From the NCBI GenBank assembly GCA_026770705.1, contig JANJGN010000023.1, positions 26,660,001 to 26,724,000 of the forward strand: 64,000 bases of DNA, given 5' to 3'. The DNA comes from Isurus oxyrinchus (taxonomy: Eukaryota). The notes below the pieces were generated by a model. It was not told the origin of the DNA. It searched no databases and saw only the letters and a list, made by a program, of their open reading frames with translations. Position numbers and translations under genes: made by a program. The number at the start of each line of letters is the position of its first letter. Positions within the stretch are counted from its first letter, which is position 1. Positions 4,998 through 63,783 of this stretch are shown here, piece by piece.

Positions 4998-5616
4998 TGT
5001 GTGGACTATCGAAAAGTGAATACGGTGACAAAAGCAGATTCATATCCTATACCGCAGTTGTAAGATTGTATTGAGAAAGTTGGACAATTGAAATTTATCA
5101 AAGATTGAATTGTTAAAAGGAAACTGGCAGGTACCGTTGTCGGAGAGATCAAAGGAGATAACAGCTTTTGTAACACCAAGTGAACTATACCAGTTTAAAG
5201 TCATGCCATTTGGGATGAAGAATGCACCTGCGACATTTCAAAGACTGACAAACAATGTAATTGCAGGTCTAAGTAATTGTGCTGTTTACATTGATGATCT
5301 AATTGTTATCAGTCAGACGTGGGCGGAGCATTTACGGCATCTGGAAGAGTTAGTTACTCGGCTACAAGAAGCTAATTTGGTGATGAACTTGGCTAAAAGT
5401 GGATTTGCTAAAGCGCAAGTCACATATCTAGGCCATACGATTGGACGTGTTAGGGTAGCTCCGAGAGATGTGACAGTCAAGGCTATTGTGGATTTCCCAG
5501 TGCCTACAACAAAACAAGAAGTTTTGAGATTTCTGGGCATGAGTAGGTTTTACTGGAAATTTGTTCCAAATTTTAGCCGAGTGGTTGCTCCGCTGACAGA
5601 ACTATTAAAAAGGAAA

Positions 5617-6524
5617 AGAATCACAGAATCACAGTGCAGAAGAGGCCCTTCGGCCCATCGAGTCTGCACCAACACATGAGAAACACCTGACCTACCTACC
5701 TAATCCCATTTACCAGCACTTGGTCCATAGCCTTGAATGTTATGACCTGCCAAGTGCTCATCCAGGTACTTTTTAAAGGATGTGAGACAACCCGCCTCCA
5801 CCACCCTCCCAGGCAGTGCATTCCAGACCATCACCACCCTCTGGGTAAAAAGGTTTTTCCTCACATCTCCCCAAAACCTCCTGCCCTTCATCTTGAACTT
5901 ATGCCCCCTTGTGACTGATCCTTCAACTAAGGGGAACAGTTGCTCTCTATCCACCTTGTCCATGCCCCTCATAATCTTGTACACCTCGATCAGGTCACCC
6001 CTCAGTCTTCTCTGCTCCAACGAAAACAACCCAAGTCTATCCAACCTCTCTTCATAACTTAAATGTTTCATGCCAGGCAACATCCTGGTGAATCTCCTCT
6101 GCACCCCCTCCAGTGCAATCACATCCTTCCTATGATGTGGCGACCAGAACTGTACACAGTACTCCAGCTGTGGCCTTACCAAGGTTCTATACAATTTCAA
6201 TATGACCTCCCTATTTTTGTAATCTATGCCTCGATTGATAAAGGCAAGTGTCCCATATGTCTTTTTCACTATCCCACTAACTTGCCCCTCTGCCTTCAGA
6301 GATCTATGGACACACACGCCAAGGTCCCTTTGTTCCTCAGAACTTCCTAGTGTCATGCCGTTCATTGAATACTTCCTTGTCAAATTACTCCTTCCAAAGT
6401 GTATCACCTCACACTTTTCAGGGTTAAGTTCCACCTGTCACTTATCTGCCCATTTGACCATCCCGTCTGTATCTTCCTGTAGCCCAAGACACTCAACCTC
6501 ACTGTTAACCACCCAGCCAATCTT
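5617..6524 (-). mobile_element. Young 5'-truncated CR1 LINE (ORF2 C-terminus + 3' UTR)
   Basis: Intact 244-aa minus-strand ORF 5700-6434 (KCEVIHFG, LYRTLVRPQLEYCVQFWSP, RLRGDLIEVYK, TRGHKFK, FTQRVVMVWNALP); ATTCT-type tail at ~5617-5632. Confidence 0.92.
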
Positions 6525-8214: not shown

Positions 8215-8345
8215 ACTTCACCACTTTTCTATTTTTACTTAGTTCTGTTGAAGAGTCATACGGACTCGAAATGTTAACTATATTCCTCTCTGCAGATGCT
8301 ACCAGACCTGCTGAGTTTTTCCAGGTATTTTTATTTTTGTTTTAG
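8215..8345 (+). mobile_element. Older Penelope pLTR-derived fragment with hammerhead-like motif (8241-8279)
   Basis: AGTT-CTGTTGA-AGAGTC-ATACG-GACTC-GAAATGTT-AACT followed by GATGCTACCAGACCTGCTGAGTTTTTCCAGGT, homologous to the pLTR at 60660-60790. Confidence 0.75.
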
Positions 8346-29274: not shown

Positions 29275-30855
29275 TAGAAGTATAAAGACAGTGAGAGTTT
29301 CTATAGATATTTTAAAAAAAGTTAACAAAGTGAGCATTGGTCCTATAGAAAGTAAGTATGTGGAATTAATAATGGAAAATAAGGAGATGGCAGATGAATT
29401 GAATAGGTATTTTGGGCATTGGTCTTCTCTATAGAGGATATTGGTAACATCCCAGAAATAGCTGCAAATCCTGAATTGGAAGGGAAGGAGAAACTCAAGA
29501 AAATTACAATTGTTGGAACTGCAGGCTGACAAGTGCCCAGGTCCTAATGGATTGCATCCTAAGTGGGATATTTGATGCACAAGTTTTGATTTTTCAAAAT
29601 TCACCAGATTAAGATAGGTTCCATTGGATTGGAAAATAACAAATATAACTTCTTTATTCAAAAAGGGAGGGAGACAGGAAGCTGGAAGTTATAGGCCAGT
29701 TACCTTGACACCTGTTATAAGAAAAATGTTAGGAGCTATTATTAAATACATTATAATAGGGCAGAGACAACATGGCTTTGTGATAGTGAAATCATGTTTA
29801 ACCAATTTATTGGAGCTCTTTGAAGGAGTAACAGGTGCTGTGAATAAAGTGGAACTGGTAGATGTACTGTACTTAGATTTTCAGAAGGCGATAAGGTGCC
29901 ACATCAAAGATTATTGTGGAAAATAAAAGATCATGGTGTAGGGAGTAACATATTGGCATGGATAGTAGATTGGCTAGCTGACAGGAAACAGAGAGGACAC
30001 ATAATTGGTTGGCAGGATGTGATGAAGGGTGTGCCACAGGGATCAATGCTGGGGCCTCAACTCTTTACAATTTATATAAATGATTTGGATGAAGGGAACA
30101 AAGATATGGTTGCTAAGTTTGCTGATGACAAGATAGGTAGGAAAGTAACTTGTGAAGAGGACATAAGGAGGCTACAAAAGGATGTAGGTAGGTTAGGTGA
30201 GTGGACAAAGATCTGGCAAATGGCGTATAATGTAGGAAAAGTGAAGTTGTCCATTTTGGCAGGACAAATGAAAAAGAGGCATATTACCTAAATGGTGAGA
30301 GACTGAACAGGCTAGGCTTTTATCAGCTGCAGTTTAGAAGAGTAAGAGATGACTATATACTTATGTATACTCACATGTCAGACCCTGACGGCACTTGACA
30401 GGGTGAACGTAGAATGTTTCCTCTAGTGGGAGAATCTAGAACTCGGGGTCACTGTTTCAAAATAAGGGGTCACCCACTTAAGACAGAGATGAGGAAAACA
30501 TTTTTGGCCAGAATTTTGCGGCTTTTCCCGTCCAGCGGTCCTACCGCACTGAATGGAGATTTAAGTAGTTCGCCACATCCACCGGGGGAAGACATGCCAC
30601 GGTGGGGCCGTAAAATCCTGGCCTTTGTCTTAGAGGGTTTTGAGACTTTGGAATTCCCTTCCTAAAAAGTTGGTTGAGGCAGAGCCCTTGAATATCTTCA
30701 AGGCAGAGGTAGATGGATTCTTGATAAGCAAGAGGGTGAAAGATTATCAGGAGTAGGCTGGAATATGAGGTGATCAGCCATGATCTTACTCATTGGTGGA
30801 GCAGGCTCAAGGGCTGAGTGGCATCCTTCCACTCCTAGTTCATATGTTTGTATAC
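29275..30855 (+). mobile_element. CR1 LINE ORF2 relic with 3' UTR, interrupted by mini-MITE 30506-30623
   Basis: DWKITNITSLFKKG, YRPVTLT, QHGF, SCLTNLLE, YLDFQKA, GVPQGSMLGPQLF, KFADD, TRGHCFK. Confidence 0.9.
30506..30623. mobile_element. 118-bp Harbinger-type mini-MITE
   Basis: GGCCAGAATTTTGCGGC / GCCGTAAAATCCTGGCC; TSD TTT. Confidence 0.85.
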
Positions 30856-40254: not shown

Positions 40255-40388
40255 AAGGAAAATATTGCAGATGCTGGAAATCTGATATAAAACTAGAAAA
40301 AGCTGGAAAAACCCAGCAGGTCTGGCAACATCTGTGGAGAGAGAAACAGAGTTAATGTTTCGAGTTGGTATGACTCTTCTTTAGCCCT
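40255..40388 (-). mobile_element. Older Penelope pLTR fragment with decayed hammerhead-like motif
   Basis: TGCAGATGCTGGAAATC...CAGCAGGTCTGGCAACATC; minus strand reads CTAAAGA-AGAGTC-ATACC-AACTC-GAAACATT-AACT. Confidence 0.65.
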
Positions 40389-52290: not shown

Positions 52291-53766
52291 CTCCCACATT
52301 ACGGTTGGTCTGGTAGGTAGAGACCTGCCCATGAACCCCATTAAAAACGATGTGGTGCTGCCTGCGAAGCCTTGTGCTGATGACTGCAAGTGCTGCCCGA
52401 AGCAGGCTAGGCAAACCAACCTTGAGGTCCCAAGCGAAGTGCAGCTCGCCAGCTGCACATCGCTTATGCAATCACGCCGACATACCTGGATGATCCAATG
52501 TGTGGCGATGATTCCAGCAAGCATGGCTTATCATGAGATGCTAAAGTATTGAAAATAGGTTCCCAACGTGCAATGGTGGGAAACACAGCCTCCCATTGAC
52601 AGGTGGAGTGAGTGATCGCAAACGACGTCATGAGACCAATTTTTGCGATCTGCTTATATTTCTGTTCCTGCCCGCTATGACGTCCGTTGCAAACAACAGC
52701 AGGCAATTCCACCCAATGACTTTACAAATTGAATGGGTCATTCAGATACAAAGACTCTGGCTGTCTCAAACTCTCAAGGTATGAAAGCCACAACACAGGA
52801 TGTATAATCAACGTAGACACCCACCTTATTTGGAAAAGGACTTTAGACTTGAAACAGGTCACATAATAAAACAGCCATACATTTGCTTTAATGGGTGCCC
52901 ATTACAGAATCTGTCTGACCTTCCTTTCCACTGAAAAAATAAAGGCCAGTTTTATACTCCAGTTGAAAATTACCCCCAAACTGTTACCACCAAAGAAATA
53001 TTTGGAAGCAACAGTCGTTCTTATAATAGGACAGTGTTCGATTACTCAAAGGGTTTAGGAAATATGATAAATGTGTGCAGCTAACAGTGGGAATTTGGAC
53101 ATAGATTGAAAAATTACTGACTTTATTATCTTCTACTACTGAATGCTGCACCAATTAGTGCGCAAGCAAACAAGGACAGCTGTAATTAAGCAACATGGAC
53201 AAAGCTCTCTGAGGCCTCATGAAGTTTACCTGGTAAGTAAAGGAACTATAAACATCAGGAAAGTGCCTGATTTGCTTTCCAGGTTGCACTGAATTAGCAA
53301 GACCTGGTTGGGTTGTAATCATTGCCCTCAATGCCCCTGAATTAGGGATCAAATATATCAGCATGGTTCATGATCCTGACCATTATTCGGTGACTATTCA
53401 AGTGAATGTGTGTAGATCTTAAATAATGGGTCAAAATAAGGTATCTTAAACAAAAATTAAAAAATACCTGGAAAAACTCAGCCGGTCTGGCAGCATCGGT
53501 GGAGAAGAGTACAGTTGACGTTTCGAGTCCTCATGTCCCTTCAACAGAATTAAGTAAAAATAGGAGAAAGGTGAAATATAAGCTGGTTTAAGTGGGGTGG
53601 GGTGGGGGGGGGGGGGGAGAAAGAAGGGGTGGGGGTGATTATTGGGAGAAGCGAGCAGTGATAGGAGGATAAAGACAAAAAAACTGCAGATGCTGGAAAT
53701 CCAAAACAAAAACAGAATTACCTGGAAAAACTCAGCAGGCCTGGCAGCATCGGCGGAGAAGAAAAG

Positions 53767-53805
53767 AGTTGACGTTTCGAGTCCTCATGACCCTTCGACA
53801 GAACT
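53767..53805 (-). ncRNA. Minimal type-I hammerhead-ribozyme-like motif (CUGUCGA core variant) in 3' pLTR
   Basis: AGUU-CUGUCGA-A-GGGUC-AUGAG-GACUC-GAAACGUC-AACU: stem I AGUU/AACU, stem II GGGUC/GACUC, palindromic ACGU in place of stem III. Confidence 0.65.
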
Positions 53806-54201
53806 TGATTTCGAGTCCAAGAAAGAGTTGAAATATAAGCTGGTTTAAGGTGTGTGTGTGGGGGGGGCGGAGAGATAGAGAGAGAGAGAGAGAGGTGGGG
53901 GGTGTGGTTGTGTGGACAAACAAGCAGTGATAGAAGCAGATCATCAAAAGATGTCAGCGACAATGGTACAATAGAACACATAGGTGTTAAAGTTAAAGTT
54001 GGTGATATTATCTAAACGAATGTGCTAATTAAGAATGGATGGTAGGGCACTCAAGGTACAGCTCTAGTGGGGGTGGAGGGAGCTTAAAAGATTTTAAAAT
54101 ATTTAAAAATAATGGAAATAGGTGGGAAAAGAAAAATCTATATAATTTATTGGGAAAAAAAAGGGGGAAAACAGAAAGGGGGTGGGGATGGGGGAGGGAG
54201 C

Positions 54202-56980
54202 TCACGACCTAAAGTTGTTGAATTCAATATTCAGTCCGAAAGGCTGTAAGGTGCCTAGTCGGAAGATGAGGTGCTGTTCCTCCAGTTTGCGTTGGGCTTC
54301 ACTGGAACAATGCAGCAAGCCAAGGACAGACATGTGGGCAAGAGAGCAGGGTGGAGTGTTAAAATGGCAAGCGACAGGGAGGTTTGGGTCATTCTTGCGG
54401 ACAGACCGCAGGTGTTCTGCAAAGCGGTCGCCCAGTTTACGTTTGGTCTCTCCAATGTAGAGGACAGCACATTGGGAGCAACGAATGCAGTAGACTAAGT
54501 TGGGGGAAATGCAAGTGAAATGCTGCTTCACTTGAAAGGAGTGTTTGGGCCATTGGACGGTGAGGAGAGAGGAAGTGAAGGGGCAGGAGTTACATCTTTT
54601 GCGTGGGCATGGGGTGGTGCCATAGGAGGGGGTTGAGGAGTAGGGGGTGATGGACGAGTGGACCAGGGTGTCCTGGAGGGAGCGATCCCTACGGAATGCC
54701 CATAAGGGGGGTGAAGGGAAGATGTGTTTGGTGGTGGCATCATGCTGGAGTTGGCGGAAATGGCGGAGGATGATCCTTTGAATGCGGAGGCTGGTGGGGT
54801 GATAAGTGAGGACAAGGGGGACCCTATCATGTTTCTGGGAGGGAGGAGAAGGCGTGAGGGCGGATGCGCGGGAGATGGGCCGGACACGGTTGAGGGCCCT
54901 GTCAACGACCATGGGTGGAAAACCTCGGTTAAGCAAGAAGGAGGACATGTCAGAGGAACCGTTTTTGAAGGTAGCATCATCGGAACAGATGCGACGAAGG
55001 CGAAGGAACTGGGAGAATGGGATGGAGTCCTTACAGGAAGCGGGGTGTGAGGAGCTGTAGTCGAGGTAGCTGTGGGAGTCGGTGGGTTTGTAATGGATAT
55101 TGGTGGACAGTCTATCACCAGAGATTGAGACAGAGAGGTCAAGGAAGGGAAGGGAAGTGTCAGAGATGGACCACGTGAAAATGATGGAGGGGTGGAGATT
55201 GGAAGCAAAATTAATAAATTTTTCCAAGTCCCGACGAGAGCATGAAGCGGCACCGAAGTAATCATCGATGTACCGGAAAAAAGTTGTGGAAGGGGGCCGG
55301 AGTAGGACTGCAACAAGGAATGTTCCACATACCCCATAAAGAGACAGGCATAGCTGGGGCCCATGCGGGTACCCATAGCCACACCTTTTATTTGGAGGAA
55401 GTGAGAGGAGTTGAAGGAGAAATTGTTCAACGTGAGAACAAGTTCAGCCAGACGGAGGAGAGTAGTGGTGGATGGGGATTGTTCGGGCCTCTGTTCGAGG
55501 AAGAAGCTAAGGGCCCTCAGACCATCCTGGTGGGGGATGGAGGTGTAGAGGGATTGGACGTCCATGGTGAAGCGGAAGCGGTTGGGGCCAGGGAACTGGA
55601 AATTGTTGATGTGATGTAAGGTGTCAGAGGAATCACGGATGTAGGTGGGAAGGGACTGGACAAGGGGAGAGAGAAGGGAGTCAAGATAACGAGAAATGAG
55701 TTCTTGGGGCAGGAGCAAGCTGAGACGATCGGTCTACCGGGGCAGTTCTGTTTGTGGATTTTGGGTAGGAGATAGAAGCGGGCTGTCCGAGGTTGGGCGA
55801 CTATCAGGTTGGAAGCTGTGGGAGGGAGATCCCCAGAGGAGATGAGGTCAGTGACAGTCCTGGAAGCAATGGCTTGATGTTCAGTGGTGGGGTCATGGTC
55901 CAGGGAGAGGTAGGAGGAAGTGTCTGCGAGTTGACGCTCAGCCTCCGCGAGGTAGAGGTCAGTGCGCCAGACAACAACAGCACCACCCTTGTCAGCGGGT
56001 TTGATGACAATGTCAGGGTTGGACTTGAGAGAATGGAGTGCAGTAAGTTCAGAGAGAGACAGGTTAGAATGGGTGAGAGGAGCAGAGAAATTGAGATGAC
56101 TAATGTCGCGCCGACAGTTCTCAATGAAAAGATCAAGAGAAGGTAAGAATCCAGAGGGAGGGGTCCAGGTGGAGGGAGAATATTGGAGATGGGTAAAAGG
56201 ATCCGTTGAACTGGGAGAGGACTCCTGCCCAAAGAAGTGAGCCCGGAGACGAAGACGGCGGAAGAAGAGTTCAGTATCATGCCGAGCCCGAAATTCATTG
56301 AGGTGAGGGCGTAAGGGTATGAAACTAAGTCCTTTGCTGAGCACTGAACGTTCAGCATCGGAGAGGGGAAGGTCAGGGGGTATAGTGAATACACGGCTGG
56401 GGTTGGGATTGGAAGATGGGGTGGGGACGGAGGGACAGGCCGGGGTGGAGGGTCCTAAATGGGTGTTGGTGTCGATGAGTTGTTGGAGCTTGCGTTCCTT
56501 AGCACTTGAGAGAAAGAGAAAAAGTTTCTTGTTGAGGTGTCGGATGAGCCGAAGGATAAAATGAAACTGGGGGCACGCGCAGCTTTGAAAAAGGGTACGG
56601 CGGTGCTGCTGGAGGGAGAGGTCGAGTGTGTTCATATGGCGGCGCATGGCACTGAGTGTGGATTTCAGAATGTGACGGGAACAGCAGTCCGAGAAACGTT
56701 TTATGTCACGGAGATACCGATAATCCTGGGTGGGTTCGAAAGATGAGGGGTGGAATTTCAGTTGAAATCCACGTGGGGTAAGTCGAAGACGGAGACAGTC
56801 ACTGAGAAAGGAGATATGGCTGTGAAAGCGGGTTTTAGTAAACACCTTGTCAAACACCAGGAGGGAAATGGAAAGCAAAGAAGGTGAACAAGGCAACAGA
56901 GAGATACGGAAATCTTGTCGCAGAGAGGAACAGAACTTCTTCAAGGAGGTAGGCATTTCTTGAAGAGCAGTGGCAGTCAA
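54202..56980 (-). pseudogene. Penelope polyprotein (N-terminal domain, RT, Cys-rich linker, GIY-YIG endonuclease), ~920 aa with two 1-bp frameshifts
   Basis: HISFLSDCLRLRLTPRG; IKPADKGGAVVV; FYLLPKIHK..PGRPIVS; DVQSLYTSIP; GVAMGTRMGP; RYIDD (55262-55276); CPRKRCNSC; LVYCIRCSQCAVLYIGETKR..RFAEH; GLNIEF. Shifts at ~55704 and ~55280. Confidence 0.93.
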
Positions 56981-57090
56981 TTAAACACAGAGATAAAGAC
57001 AAAAAAACTGCAGATGCTGGAAATCCAAAACAAAAACAGAATTACCTGGAAAAACTCAGCAGGTCTGGCAGCATCGGCGGAGAAGAAAAG

Positions 57091-57129
57091 AGTTGACGTT
57101 TCGAGTCCTCATGACCCTTCGACAGAACT
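57091..57129 (-). ncRNA. Minimal hammerhead-like motif in 5' pLTR
   Basis: Identical to 53767-53805. Confidence 0.65.
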
Positions 57130-60100
57130 TGATTTCGAGTCCAAGAAAGAGTTGAAATATAAGCTGGTTTAAGGTATGTGTGATAGGAGGAGATAACCAA
57201 AAGATGTCACAGACAAAAGAACAAAGAGGTGTTGAAGGTGGTGAGATTATCTAAAAGAATGTGCTAATTATGAAAGGATAGCAGGATGAGCAAGGTACAG
57301 TGGGGGTGCGGTGAAATAAGACCAAAAGGGCATAAAAGGTATGGATAAATGATTGGTGGAATACATTAAAAATAATGGAAATAGGTGGGAAAAGAAAAAT
57401 CTATATAAACAAAAAAGCAAAAAGGAGGGGGAAGAAACGGAAAGGGGGTGGGGATGGAAGAGGGAGTTTAAGATCTAAAATTGTTGAACTCAATATTCAG
57501 GCTGTAAAGTGCCTAGTCGGAAGATGAGGTGCTGTTCCTCCAGTTTGCGTTGAGCTTCACTGGAACAATGCAGCAGGCCAAGGACAGACATGTGGGCAAG
57601 AGAGCAGGGTGGAGTGTTAAAATGGCAAGCGACAGGGAGGTTTGGGTGATGCTTGCGGACAGACCGCAGGTGTTCTGCAAAGCGGTCGCCCAGTTTACGT
57701 TTGGTCTCTCCAATGTAGAGGAAACCACATTGGGAGCAACGAATGCAGTTGAAGAAAATGCAAGTGAAATGCTGCTTCACTTGAAAGGAGTATTTGGGCC
57801 CTTGGATGGTGAGAAGAGAGGAAGTGAAGGGGCAGGTGTTGCATATCTTGCGTTTGCATGGGGAGGTGCCATAGGAGGGTGTTGGGGACTAGGGGGTGAT
57901 GGAGGAGTGGACCAGGGTGTCCTGGAGGGAATGATCCCTACGGAATGCCACCGGGGGAGTGAAGGCAAGATGTGTTTGGTGGTGGCATCATGCTGGAGTT
58001 GGCAGAAATGGCGGAGGATGATCCTTTGAATGCGGAGGCTGGTGGGGTGATAAGTGAGGACAAGGGGGACCCTATCATGTTTCTGGGAGGGAGGAGAAGG
58101 CATGAGGGCGGATGCGCGGGAGATGGGCCGGGCACGGTTGAGGGCCCTGTCAACCATTATGGGTGAAAAGCCTCGGTTAAGGAAGAAGGAGGACATGTCA
58201 GAGCAACTGTTTTTGAAGGTAGCATCATCAGAACAGATGCGACGGAGGCAAAGGAACTGAGAGAATGGGATGGAGTCCTTGCAGGAAGCGGGGTGTAGTC
58301 AAGGTAGCTGTGGGAGTCGGTAGGCTTGTAATGGATATTGGTGGACAGTCTATCAACAGAAATTGAGACAGAGAGGTCAAGGAAGGAAAGGGAAGTGTCA
58401 GAGTTGGACCATGTGAAAATGATAGTGGGGTGGAGATTGGAAGCAAAATTAATAAATTTTTCCAGGTCCCGACAAGAGCATGAAGCAGCACCGAAGTAAT
58501 CATCGATGCACCGGAGAAAGAGTTATGGGAGGGGGCCGGAGTAGGACTGGAACAAGGAATGTTCCACATACCCCATAAAGAGACAGGCATAGCTGGGGCC
58601 CAAGCGGGTACCTATAGCCGCATCTTTTATTTGGAGGAAGTGAGGGGAGTTGAAGGAGAAATTGTTCAGTGTGAGAACAAGTTCAGCCAGACGGAGAAGA
58701 GTAGTGGTGGCTGGGGATTGTTTGGGCCTCTGTTCGAAGAAGAAGCTAAGGGCCCTCAGACCATCCCGGTGGGGGATGGAGGTGTGGAGGGATTGAACGT
58801 CCATGGTGAAGAGGAGGCAGTTGGGGCCAGGGAACTGGAAATTGTTGATGTGACATAAGGTGTCAGAGGAATCACGGATGTGGGGGGGAAGGGACAGGAC
58901 AAGGGGAGAGAGAAGGGCATCAAGATAGCGAGAAATGAGTTCCATGGGGCAGGAACAGGCTGACACGATTGGTCTGCCGGGACAGTCCTGTTTATGGATT
59001 TTGGGTAGGAGATAGAAGCGAGCCGTCCGAGGTTGGGCGACTATCAGGTTGGAAGGAGATGAGGTCAGTGTCAGATTTGTAAACAATGGCTTGATGTTCA
59101 GAGGTGGGGTTATGATCCATGGTCCCCAGCTATGTCTGTCTCTTTACGGGGTATGTGGAACATTCCTTGTTCTAGTACTACTCCGGACCCCTCCTGATGA
59201 TTACTTCGGTGCTGCTTCATGCTCTCATCGGGACTTGGAAAAATTTATTAATTTTGTTTCCAATCTCCAACCGTCCATCATTTTCACATGGTCCATCTCT
59301 GACACTTCCCTTCCCTTCCTTGACCTCTCTGTCTCAATTTCTGATGATAGACTGTCCACCAATATCCATTACAAGCCTACCGACTCCCACAGCTACCTTG
59401 ACTACAGATCCTCACACCCCGCGTCCTGTAAGGACTCCATCCCATTTTCTCAGTTCCTTCACCTCCGTCGCACCTGTTCTGATGATGCTACCTTCAAAAA
59501 CAGTTCCTCTGACATGTCCTCCTTCTTCCTTAACCGAGGTTTTCCACCCACAGTAGTTGACAGGGCCCTCAACTGTGTCCAGCCCATCTCCCGCGCATCC
59601 GCCCTCACGCCTTCTCCTCCCTCCCAGAAACATGATAGGGTCCCCCTTGTCCTCACTTATCACCCCACCAGCCTCCGCATTCAAAGGATCATCCTCCGCC
59701 ATTTCCGCCAACTCCAGCATGATGCCACCACCAAACACATCTTCCCTTCACCCACTCCGGCGGCATTCCGTAGGGATCGTTTCCTCCGGGATACCCTGGT
59801 CCACTCCTCCATCATCCCCTACTCCTCAACCCCCTCCTACGGCACCTCCCCATGCAAATGCAAGATATGCAACACCTGCCCCTTCTTTTCCTCTCTCCTT
59901 ATCATCCAAGGGCCCAAATACTCTTTTCAAGTGAAGCAGCATTTCACTTGCATTTCCTTCAACTTAGTCTACTGCATTCATTGCTCCCAGTGCGGTTTCC
60001 TCTACATTGGAGAGACCAAACGCAGACTGGATGACCGCTTTGCAGAACACCTGCGGTCTGTCGGCAAGCATCACCCAGACCTCCCTGTCGCTTGCCATTT

Positions 60101-60662
60101 TAACACTATACTCTGCTCTCTTGCCCACATGTCTGTCCTTGGCTTGCTGCATTGTTCCAGTGAAGCTCAACGCAAACTGGAGGAACAACACCTCATCTTC
60201 CGACTAGGCACCTTACAGCCTTCCGGACTGAATATTGAATTCGACAACTTTAGATCTTGCCCTCCCTCCTCCATCCCCACCCCCTTTCTGTTTCTTCCCC
60301 CTTCTTTTTGTTTTTTCAAATAATTTATATAGATTTTTCTTTTCCCACCTATTTCCATTATTTTTAATGTATTCCACTGATCATTTATCCATACATTTTA
60401 CGCCCTTTTAGTCTTATTTCACCCCACCCCCACTGTACCTTGCTCGTCCTGCTATCCATTCTTAATTAGCACATGCTTTTAGATAATATCACCACCTGTA
60501 ACACTTTTTGTTCTTTTGTCTGTGACATGTTTTGGTTATCTTCTTCTACCACTGCTCACTTGTCCCAACAACCACCCCCTCCTTCTCTCTCCCCACCACC
60601 ATTACCCCCGCCCTCCCACCATTTAAACCAGCTTATATTTCACCCCTCTTTTACTTTTACTT

Positions 60663-60701
60663 GGTTCTGTTGAAGGGTCAAGAGGACTCGAAACGTCAAC
60701 T
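60663..60701 (+). ncRNA. Minimal hammerhead-like motif (CUGUUGA) in older pLTR
   Basis: GGUU-CUGUUGA-A-GGGUC-AAGAG-GACUC-GAAACGUC-AACU; sister copy at 53513-53551 (-). Confidence 0.6.
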
Positions 60702-61848: not shown

Positions 61849-62195
61849 CTAAGTATGTTAATGCAACTGAGGAATGCACAAAATATGTGGGGATGGGTCC
61901 TTGCTGACTCTAGCTAGCTTTGCATATTTAGGGGCTCTGGTTATGTCTGCAATAGAGAAACAGAAACCAAATTTTAGTGCAAAGCAAGATAACTCCCAGG
62001 TAACAAGTATGACAGAATGTCATTGAAGGATTGTTTTTTCTATCAGTAACTTGGAGGAACTGGTTCTGGTGGGTGGGATGGGTCCAGGGGGGTGGTGCGG
62101 GGGGTGGGGGCGGGGGTGCTGGGGAGGTGGGAGGCAGGGGCGCCATGTGTTCAGAAAAATTAAATAACCCAAAAGGAAGGCATAAATATCACAGA

Positions 62196-62414
62196 ACAAA
62201 AACAGAATTACCTGGAAAAACTCAGCAGGTCTGGCAGCATTGGCGGAGAAGAAAAGAGTTGATGTTTCGAGTCCTCATGACCCTTCGACAGAACTGACTC
62301 GAAACATCAACTCTTTTCTTCTCCGCCGATGCTGCCAGACCTGCTGAGTTTTTCCAGGTAATTCTGTTTTTGTTTTGGATTTCCAGCATCCGCAGTTTTT
62401 TTGTTTTTATCTCT
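62196..62414. mobile_element. 219-bp fold-back insertion made only of Penelope pLTR sequence
   Basis: Reverse pLTR 62196-62295 + forward pLTR 62296-62414; 14-bp TSD ATAAATATCACAGA (62182-62195, 62415-62428). Confidence 0.9.
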
Positions 62415-63510: not shown

Positions 63511-63745
63511 AGAAAAACTCAGCAGGTCTGGCAGCATCGGCGGAGAAGAAAAGAGTTGACATTTCGAGTCCTCATGACCCTTCGACAGAACTTGAGTGGA
63601 CTCGAACTCAAGTTCTGTCGAAGGGTCATGAGGACTCGAAACGTCAACTCTTTTCTTCTCCGCCGATGCTGCTAGACCTGCTGAGTTTTTCCAGGTAATT
63701 CTGTTTTTGTTTTGGATTTCCAGCATCTGCAGTTTTTTTGTTTTT
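63511..63745. mobile_element. 235-bp fold-back insertion made only of Penelope pLTR sequence, with a hammerhead-like motif on each strand
   Basis: Arms 63512-63597 and 63606-63691 are near-perfect inverted repeats; motifs at 63554-63592 (-) and 63611-63649 (+); 13-bp TSD AATCCTTGTATGT (63498-63510, 63746-63758). Confidence 0.9.
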
Positions 63746-63783
63746 AATCCTTGTATGTGTTGTTCACTTGGCTTTATTCTATA

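Follow-up and report, generated by a model that had tools for sequence, protein, structure and literature searches.

A hammerhead motif with U at core position 6 as the family state of a Penelope-like element in Isurus oxyrinchus

The Penelope-like element and its motif copies

The window analysed here is a stretch of 64,000 nucleotides of Isurus oxyrinchus DNA. A young EN+ Penelope-like element (PLE) of subfamily E lies on its minus strand at 53668-57182, as a partial tandem made of a piece of the 5' pseudo-LTR (pLTR), the open reading frame (ORF), the 3' pLTR and a tail, with a 191-nt repeat (53668-53858 and 56992-57182) whose two copies are 99% identical. The translated ORF (54202-56956, minus strand) contains the DKG and YIDD motifs of a reverse transcriptase (RT), a CX4CxxC linker (CPRKRCNSC) and, at the C-terminus, a GIY-YIG-like domain. 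It carries two frameshifts (near 55707 and in 55278-55389), so that the original prediction went too far in calling this youngest element near-intact. The atlas matches for the ORF were HTH_animal and GIY-YIG (cosine 0.95-0.96), and a Pfam scan and a PDB sequence scan of pieces of the ORF gave no match.

The ORF is flanked by two hammerhead motifs, both on its sense strand. The motif in the 5' pLTR (57091-57129, minus strand) has U6 at 57122 and a predicted cut between 57095 and 57094, 138 nt before the ATG, and the motif in the 3' pLTR (53767-53805, minus strand) has U6 at 53798 and a predicted cut between 53771 and 53770, with a tail of about 100 nt after it. The same arrangement was found at the loci L361, L362 and L365. 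Among six loci chosen genome-wide for two motifs about 3.3-4 kb apart, three contained an unbroken ORF of 917-918 amino acids between U6 motifs, with DKG, YIDD and YIGET; the U6 line is therefore regarded as autonomous and recent. The CX2-5CxxC pattern, searched anywhere in the ORF, was also present within the intact ORFs of other loci, and this linker marks PLEs of the Neptune/Nematis type (PMC8557442).

At the locus L366 (G000:C2:3768900-3773500) two young motifs form an inverted pair about 4 kb apart and both carry G5>T, a change that may have been copied within a single insertion event. The window also holds decayed remnants of other retroelements (1711-2961 and 5092-5679, plus strand; 5700-6437, minus strand; 29848-30291, plus strand), with RT matches at 5092 and 29848. 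By resemblance, we take these remnants to be LTR-type gag/integrase/RT pieces and LINE-type RT pieces.

All eight 39-nt motif copies of the original prediction were found again at the same coordinates and on the same strands, each with T at core position 6, and their sequence features identify them as putative minimal hammerheads of type I, carried by the pLTRs of a Neptune/Nematis-type PLE. The sequence said to be common to them, GAAACGTC, was exact in only five of the eight. The copies starting at 8241, 63554 and 62257 depart from it by CpG-type decay or by the older GUU triplet: C15.2>T in 8241 and 63554, a GUU end in 8241, and G16.2>A in 62257.

Apart from the two motifs of the young element, we found a subfamily B copy (8241-8279, plus strand; U6, U7, A10.2 and U17, with one CpG decay) and a subfamily C copy (53513-53551, minus strand) in an older pLTR adjoining the young element, with two stem mismatches and broken pairs in both stem I and stem II. 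Another subfamily C copy (60663-60701, plus strand) lies in the 3' pLTR of a truncated element with an ORF remnant at 59196-60257. A fold-back insertion at 62192-62411 combines a complete U6 motif (62257-62295, minus strand) with an inverted partner (62296-62411, plus strand) that begins in stem II, and a head-to-head pair of young U6 motifs (63554-63592, minus strand; 63611-63649, plus strand) lies within 63512-63746. These older pLTRs, the fold-back and the head-to-head pair are arrangements known for PLEs. One further copy, expected to keep A6 at about 40350-40385, does keep it; it spans 40350-40388 (minus strand) and is old and decayed, with G5>A and the 5' strand of stem I lost.

Fold and pairing

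Stem I is formed by motif columns 1-4/36-39 (4 bp) and stem II by columns 13-17/23-27 (5 bp). The two stems as originally drawn agree with a 15-row alignment, in which 95.7% of the cells pair, versus 1-50% with slid partners. Stem II pairing is kept between families, as had been claimed, but through a one-sided change from A-U to a G.U wobble and not through covariation; in the 15 rows no pair of stem I or stem II was altered on both sides. A descriptor that left position 6 free gave 52 matches in 1.264 Mb of unselected DNA (47 with U, 4 with A and 1 with C) and 0 matches in each of five shuffles of that DNA. The Rfam search returned no hammerhead family even at E<=10, only hairpin-driven miRNA matches below the gathering score. 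When the motif was compared with the sequence features of minimal hammerheads (min-HHRs), the CUGANGA box with A6 was absent and all other features were present, so we class the motif as a variant and not as a canonical min-HHR. Among these features, the ACGU palindrome followed by C or U was found in all six subfamily majorities (GAAA, no stem III, NUH triplet).

According to the folding model, stem II should form in the isolated 39-mer (P 0.65-0.96). The cofold minima of the motif were other structures, the double-hammerhead dimer being pseudoknotted and outside this scoring. In context, the ribozyme-ready fold was predicted to be disfavoured by 4.7-10.2 kcal/mol in all six named subfamilies. 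An inhibitory fold that U6 would create or abolish found no support: swapping position 6 in silico in these six subfamilies shifted the folding penalty by at most 1 kcal/mol. We also observed that a conserved upstream block, AAACCAGC (57170-57163 of the window, minus strand), repeatedly pairs in folding with a downstream block that is likewise conserved, GCTGAGTTT (about 57056-57048, minus strand). This pairing encloses the entire motif and is possible only in read-through RNA, not in RNA begun at stem I.

Position 6 across the genome

An exact-pattern search of the genome with identical flanks recovered 97,227 copies (U6, 91,157; A6, 3,721; C or G at position 6, 2,349), a count biased towards young copies by the exactness of the patterns. 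With the reversed control patterns, none of the genome searches gave a match. In a flank-anchored sample of 161 hits, 151 after the coverage filter, 105 reached position 6, and these had T in 70 cases, A in 26, C in 5, G in 1 and a gap in 3, some of them being misaligned at junctions.

U6 is the family state of the element. It makes up 93.8% of the 97,227 exact-pattern copies and was found in 48 of 49 young copies picked by flank, which rules out per-copy decay as its source, as the original prediction had argued. The same prediction placed U6 in at least three subfamilies; it is the majority state in four successive ones and also occurs in elements with intact ORFs. The opposite outcome, a genome-wide A6 consensus with U6 limited to a few copies, was looked for as well, and U6 was found to dominate genome-wide.

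Subfamily history

The pLTR alignment arranges the subfamilies as a ladder. Subfamilies O and A have A6 and GUU, B has U6 and is otherwise like A, C has 10.2 A>G, a new loop II and GUC, and D and E have C7. GUC and GUU are both cleavable triplets, GUC being cleaved faster. Divergence from the subfamily majority was 0.052 in A, 0.054 in B, 0.045 in C, 0.018 in D and 0.014 in E, and the ORFs differed at four-fold sites by 3/152 (A-B), 10/157 (B-C), 11/169 (C-E) and 19/159 (B-E). U6 appears to have arisen at the A/B subfamily boundary, and a single origin is compatible with the data. In a tree of 45 copies, the order of which agrees with the ladder, position 6 needs 3 changes, versus a mean of 10 after shuffling; one of the 3 is a lone A6 copy within E and the others fall in an unresolved A/B polytomy. 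An A6 side branch of 7 copies (e.g. L037, L039, L042, L053) carries G10.2 and C17, which match changes of the U6 line and arose by convergence or by recombination.

Subfamily B, the first with U6, comprises 4,283 exact copies and roughly equals its A6 parent in abundance and age. That U6 triggered an amplification burst found no support: B does not exceed its parent in size, and it was in D/E that the burst occurred.

The flanks of the motif changed along the same ladder. Over the 25 nt before stem I, change in subfamilies C to E was much faster than the neutral rate. A 10-mer gained there stepwise, from C to E, is identical in subfamily E to the 3' strand of stem II plus GAAA (57133-57142, minus strand; also 53809-53818) and is preceded by a near copy of the sequence after the cut site. 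This 10-mer could compete for stem II or could stem from template switching, and folding clearly favoured neither. On the other side, 16-19 nt after stem I (e.g. 8280-8300 of the window, plus strand), subfamilies O, A and B show a pyrimidine tract that resembles a splice acceptor and ends in CAG, and they have a branch-point-like TTAAC that overlaps the cut site. Subfamilies C-E lost both the acceptor-like and the branch-point-like feature (CAG to CCG, U17 to C; e.g. 53747-53766, minus strand).

Changes in the motif after A6U

From B to E the motif changed at 5 of its 39 positions: N7, 10.2 (to a wobble), two positions in loop II, and H17 (U>C). All five are sites at which hammerheads tolerate change (P = 0.001-0.012 over six mutation models, with 25-42% of the possible changes counted as tolerable). 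The overall change in the motif equals the neutral four-fold rate of the ORF between the same subfamilies, and the 10 unchanged core sites have on their own an estimated P of about 0.28. The selection signal thus comes from where the changes fell, not from how many there were.

Most subfamily samples were gathered with patterns that demand the core, and two independent checks were therefore made, one on G5 and one on copies recognised by flank only. Changes at G5 amounted to 1,228 of 92,385 (1.3%), the level of post-insertion decay. In young copies chosen by the downstream flank alone (61 of 63 used) there were 0 changes at C3, U4, G5, G8, A9, G12, A13, A15.1 and U16.1, one at A14, two or three at each of the CpG positions, and 9/49 at N7; A9a was kept in 51/51, G10.1 in 52/53 and C11.1 in 57/60. 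No recurrent core change outside position 6 was found in these 61 copies. Exact copies with C6-U7 numbered 1,128, many of them with an early-D flank, and among the matches listed for the 1,480 copies with this flank, counted by eye, C6 was present in 38/100 and A6 in 0/100. Position 6 is relaxed in amplifying lineages, G5 is not, and a C6 sub-lineage has amplified.

Insertion boundaries, promoter and RNA template

We located the 5' boundaries of 285 copies with a whole motif, with positions accurate to a few bases: 157 continue upstream, 96 have their boundary at most 4 nt from where stem I starts, and in 32 it lies 5-31 nt upstream. Hence 96 of the 128 truncated copies end at stem I, and this pile-up was found with A6 (32/41 truncated copies) and with U6/C6 (64/87). 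A TATA-like TATATTT lies 32 nt before stem I in the young element (57155-57161, minus strand; twin at 53831-53837) and 28-32 nt upstream of stem I in six subfamilies, forming a predicted promoter whose +1 would fall on or close to the first base of stem I. At that point subfamilies A-C have an initiator-like YYAGTT. Given the TATA spacing and the boundary pile-up, we infer that the first base of stem I, or one close to it, is where transcription starts. The alternative is an RT stop or a fold-back at stem I, and in its favour 51 of the 96 copies that end there are inverted. Whichever of these causes the pile-up, uncut RNA would be the likely template of reverse transcription, since boundaries lie at stem I and almost never at the cut site.

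Junctions within the 6 nt before the cut were matched by 578 young copies, versus 82,923 intact ones (about 83,500 in total); by our estimate the pattern catches perhaps a third, giving about 2% of young copies. Of thirty cut-junction copies examined, one was a plain start at the cut and 24 were fold-back inversions, with AACT or GTC microhomology in several of them. As an indicator of activity, 5' ends at the cut site were discarded: young copies had none (1/53 near the site) and old-type copies had no clear one (4/64 near the site, at least two of them from other families), so the test fails to separate A6 from U6.

Old hammerhead copies also contain an insertion just before the cut site (L211 and L213, near 1500), namely an element whose terminal inverted repeats are short, its ends resembling GGGCAGAATTTT and AAAATTCTGCCC, and which is accompanied by what looks like a 3-bp duplication of ATT. 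Many of the 507 matches to the A6-era junction pattern look like insertions of this element, and that count was excluded as swamped. By resemblance it is possibly a Harbinger-type MITE.

Readings of the U6 motif

Our tests lean towards an attenuated variant over a silenced motif, cleavage itself being a prediction. We read the U6 motif as an attenuated, putatively slow and probably protein- or dimer-assisted self-cutter that would still be functional, and we believe this about as much as we doubt it. RNA from the pLTR promoter would begin with the first base of stem I or one close by, so that the motif would form the first 39 nt of the mRNA and recur near its 3' end. Reverse transcription would begin about 100 nt downstream and copy uncut RNA through the motif, in which case cleavage would have to be slow or late. 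The two motifs may form a pair by way of the ACGU palindrome and cleave after GUC, and the cut would remove a capped 35-nt leader or trim tandem transcripts; a partly weakened core would be tolerated, a dead core would not. It is also conceivable, and in our view unlikely, that the element tuned its hammerhead down (A6 to U, then to C in a side branch) as a protein-triggered self-decapping timer, still catalytic, the uncut RNA being translated and copied, and cut after the element's own protein binds.

The family-wide U6, its place beside intact ORFs, the siting of the five changes, the constancy of G5, the amplified C6 sub-lineage and the boundary pile-up speak for an attenuated ribozyme, as do two known cases. 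A natural A6C hammerhead is active and cuts slowly, at <0.1 per min (PMC3088659), and the hammerhead of the Anolis PLE needs the protein of the element to cut, uncut RNA being the main template (PMC11167929). The measurable activity of the former also counts against a rather doubtful but serious rival, in which U6 leaves catalysis negligible and the three-way fold is kept as an RNA structure, e.g. for protein binding or as a 5' end that shapes RT run-off and fold-back. Such a silent fold would fit the pairwise mutagenesis of a type III hammerhead, where all CUGA-turn mutants, except the C3-G8 swap, were poorly active and were not rescued by a second-site change (PMC9901934), the finding that cleavage is dispensable for insertion in vitro (PMC11167929), the small share of young copies at the cut junction with its preponderance of fold-back inversions, and the lack of an amplified return to A6 among the early-D matches listed. 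It fits less well with the retention of G5, G8 and G12, nor does it explain why position 17 changed only from U to C, in the U6 line and in the A6 side branch, within the NUH rule, a point that two transitions make weakly. The same mutagenesis weighs on the attenuated ribozyme, together with the weakness of wild-type min-HHRs even as dimers (PMC4209133) and the fact that Naiads thrive without hammerheads. Much the same pattern of conservation would be expected of a fold retained to bind protein, the motif changed at the four-fold rate with its unchanged core unremarkable when taken alone, cut-site starts are rare in old A6-era families too, and two-sided covariation is lacking.

That position 6 is near-neutral in the minimal dimeric architecture (which has an extra A after A9 and lacks loop-loop contact), with U6 and C6 cutting roughly like A6, seems improbable to us. 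The presence of A, U and C in amplifying lineages and the similar size and age of subfamily B and its A6 parent are what it would predict; however, A6 stands in all of the 44 rows covered, out of 56, of Fig. S3 of PMC4209133, the descriptor there having required A6, and A6 forms hydrogen bonds in the hammerhead core, the A6C ribozyme being slow (PMC3088659). We give very little credence to a last reading, in which the 39 nt were conserved for a DNA-level reason (promoter elements just past +1) or merely for short divergence time, and the ribozyme is a relic without RNA-level selection. The motif does begin at the predicted +1, its total change does match the neutral rate, and Penelope has an internal promoter (PMC2377424), but the five changes fell on ribozyme-tolerant sites (P <= 0.012) and the single stem change keeps pairing.

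Hammerheads occur in nearly all canonical PLEs; in vitro they are weak, and insertion does without them in the single system that has been reconstituted. This genome holds a dated natural allelic series (A6, U6 and C6, with U17 or C17) in which all lineages multiplied, and the motif lies at the predicted 5' end of the transcript. Its approximately 90,000 copies are a natural test of why PLEs keep a ribozyme, which here is likely a weakened but still useful putative self-cutter. Descriptor searches that require CUGANGA would miss about 90,000 motifs in this one genome.

Comparison with known elements and hammerheads

The host element shares with the EN+ PLEs of the Neptune/Nematis type (Craig et al. 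2021, PMC8557442) a single ORF with RT and C-terminal GIY-YIG, the CX2-5CxxC linker, partial tandems, inverted 5'-truncated copies and a tail. We found no difference in protein or layout within the parts of that account used here, the assignment being made by motifs and layout and not by a reference tree.

With the min-HHRs of metazoan PLE pLTRs (Cervera and de la Pena 2014, PMC4209133) the motif has in common its presence in both pLTRs on the sense strand, a 4-bp stem I, an extra nucleotide between A9 and G10.1, the G10.1-C11.1 pair, GAAA-C-G-U-H without stem III, tens of thousands of solo copies and opposite-strand pairs. It differs in that U (or C) at position 6 is a family state, whereas the core variant published in the portions of that work covered is U3-A8; the searchable text of its supplement holds no chondrichthyan term.

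The Anolis Poseidon PAc hammerhead (Frangieh et al. 2024, PMC11167929), the main text on which mentions no position-6 change, is likewise a pLTR motif upstream of an internal RT start, with uncut RNA as template and no trace of cut-site ends. That element belongs to the Penelope/Poseidon clade and its motif overlaps the start codon, whereas the element described here has a Zn-finger-like linker and a cut site 138 nt upstream of the ATG.

The Bcep176 phage hammerhead (Perreault et al. 2011, PMC3088659) has a natural A6C and, as here, the rest of the core intact. It is a single phage intergenic ribozyme with C and not U, in contrast to about 90,000 retroelement copies of a putative ribozyme in U and C lineages. 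A natural A6U hammerhead was not found in the literature surveyed, which covers published variant lists incompletely. With natural A6C already known, what appears to be new here is a PLE min-HHR whose family state at position 6 is U (or C).
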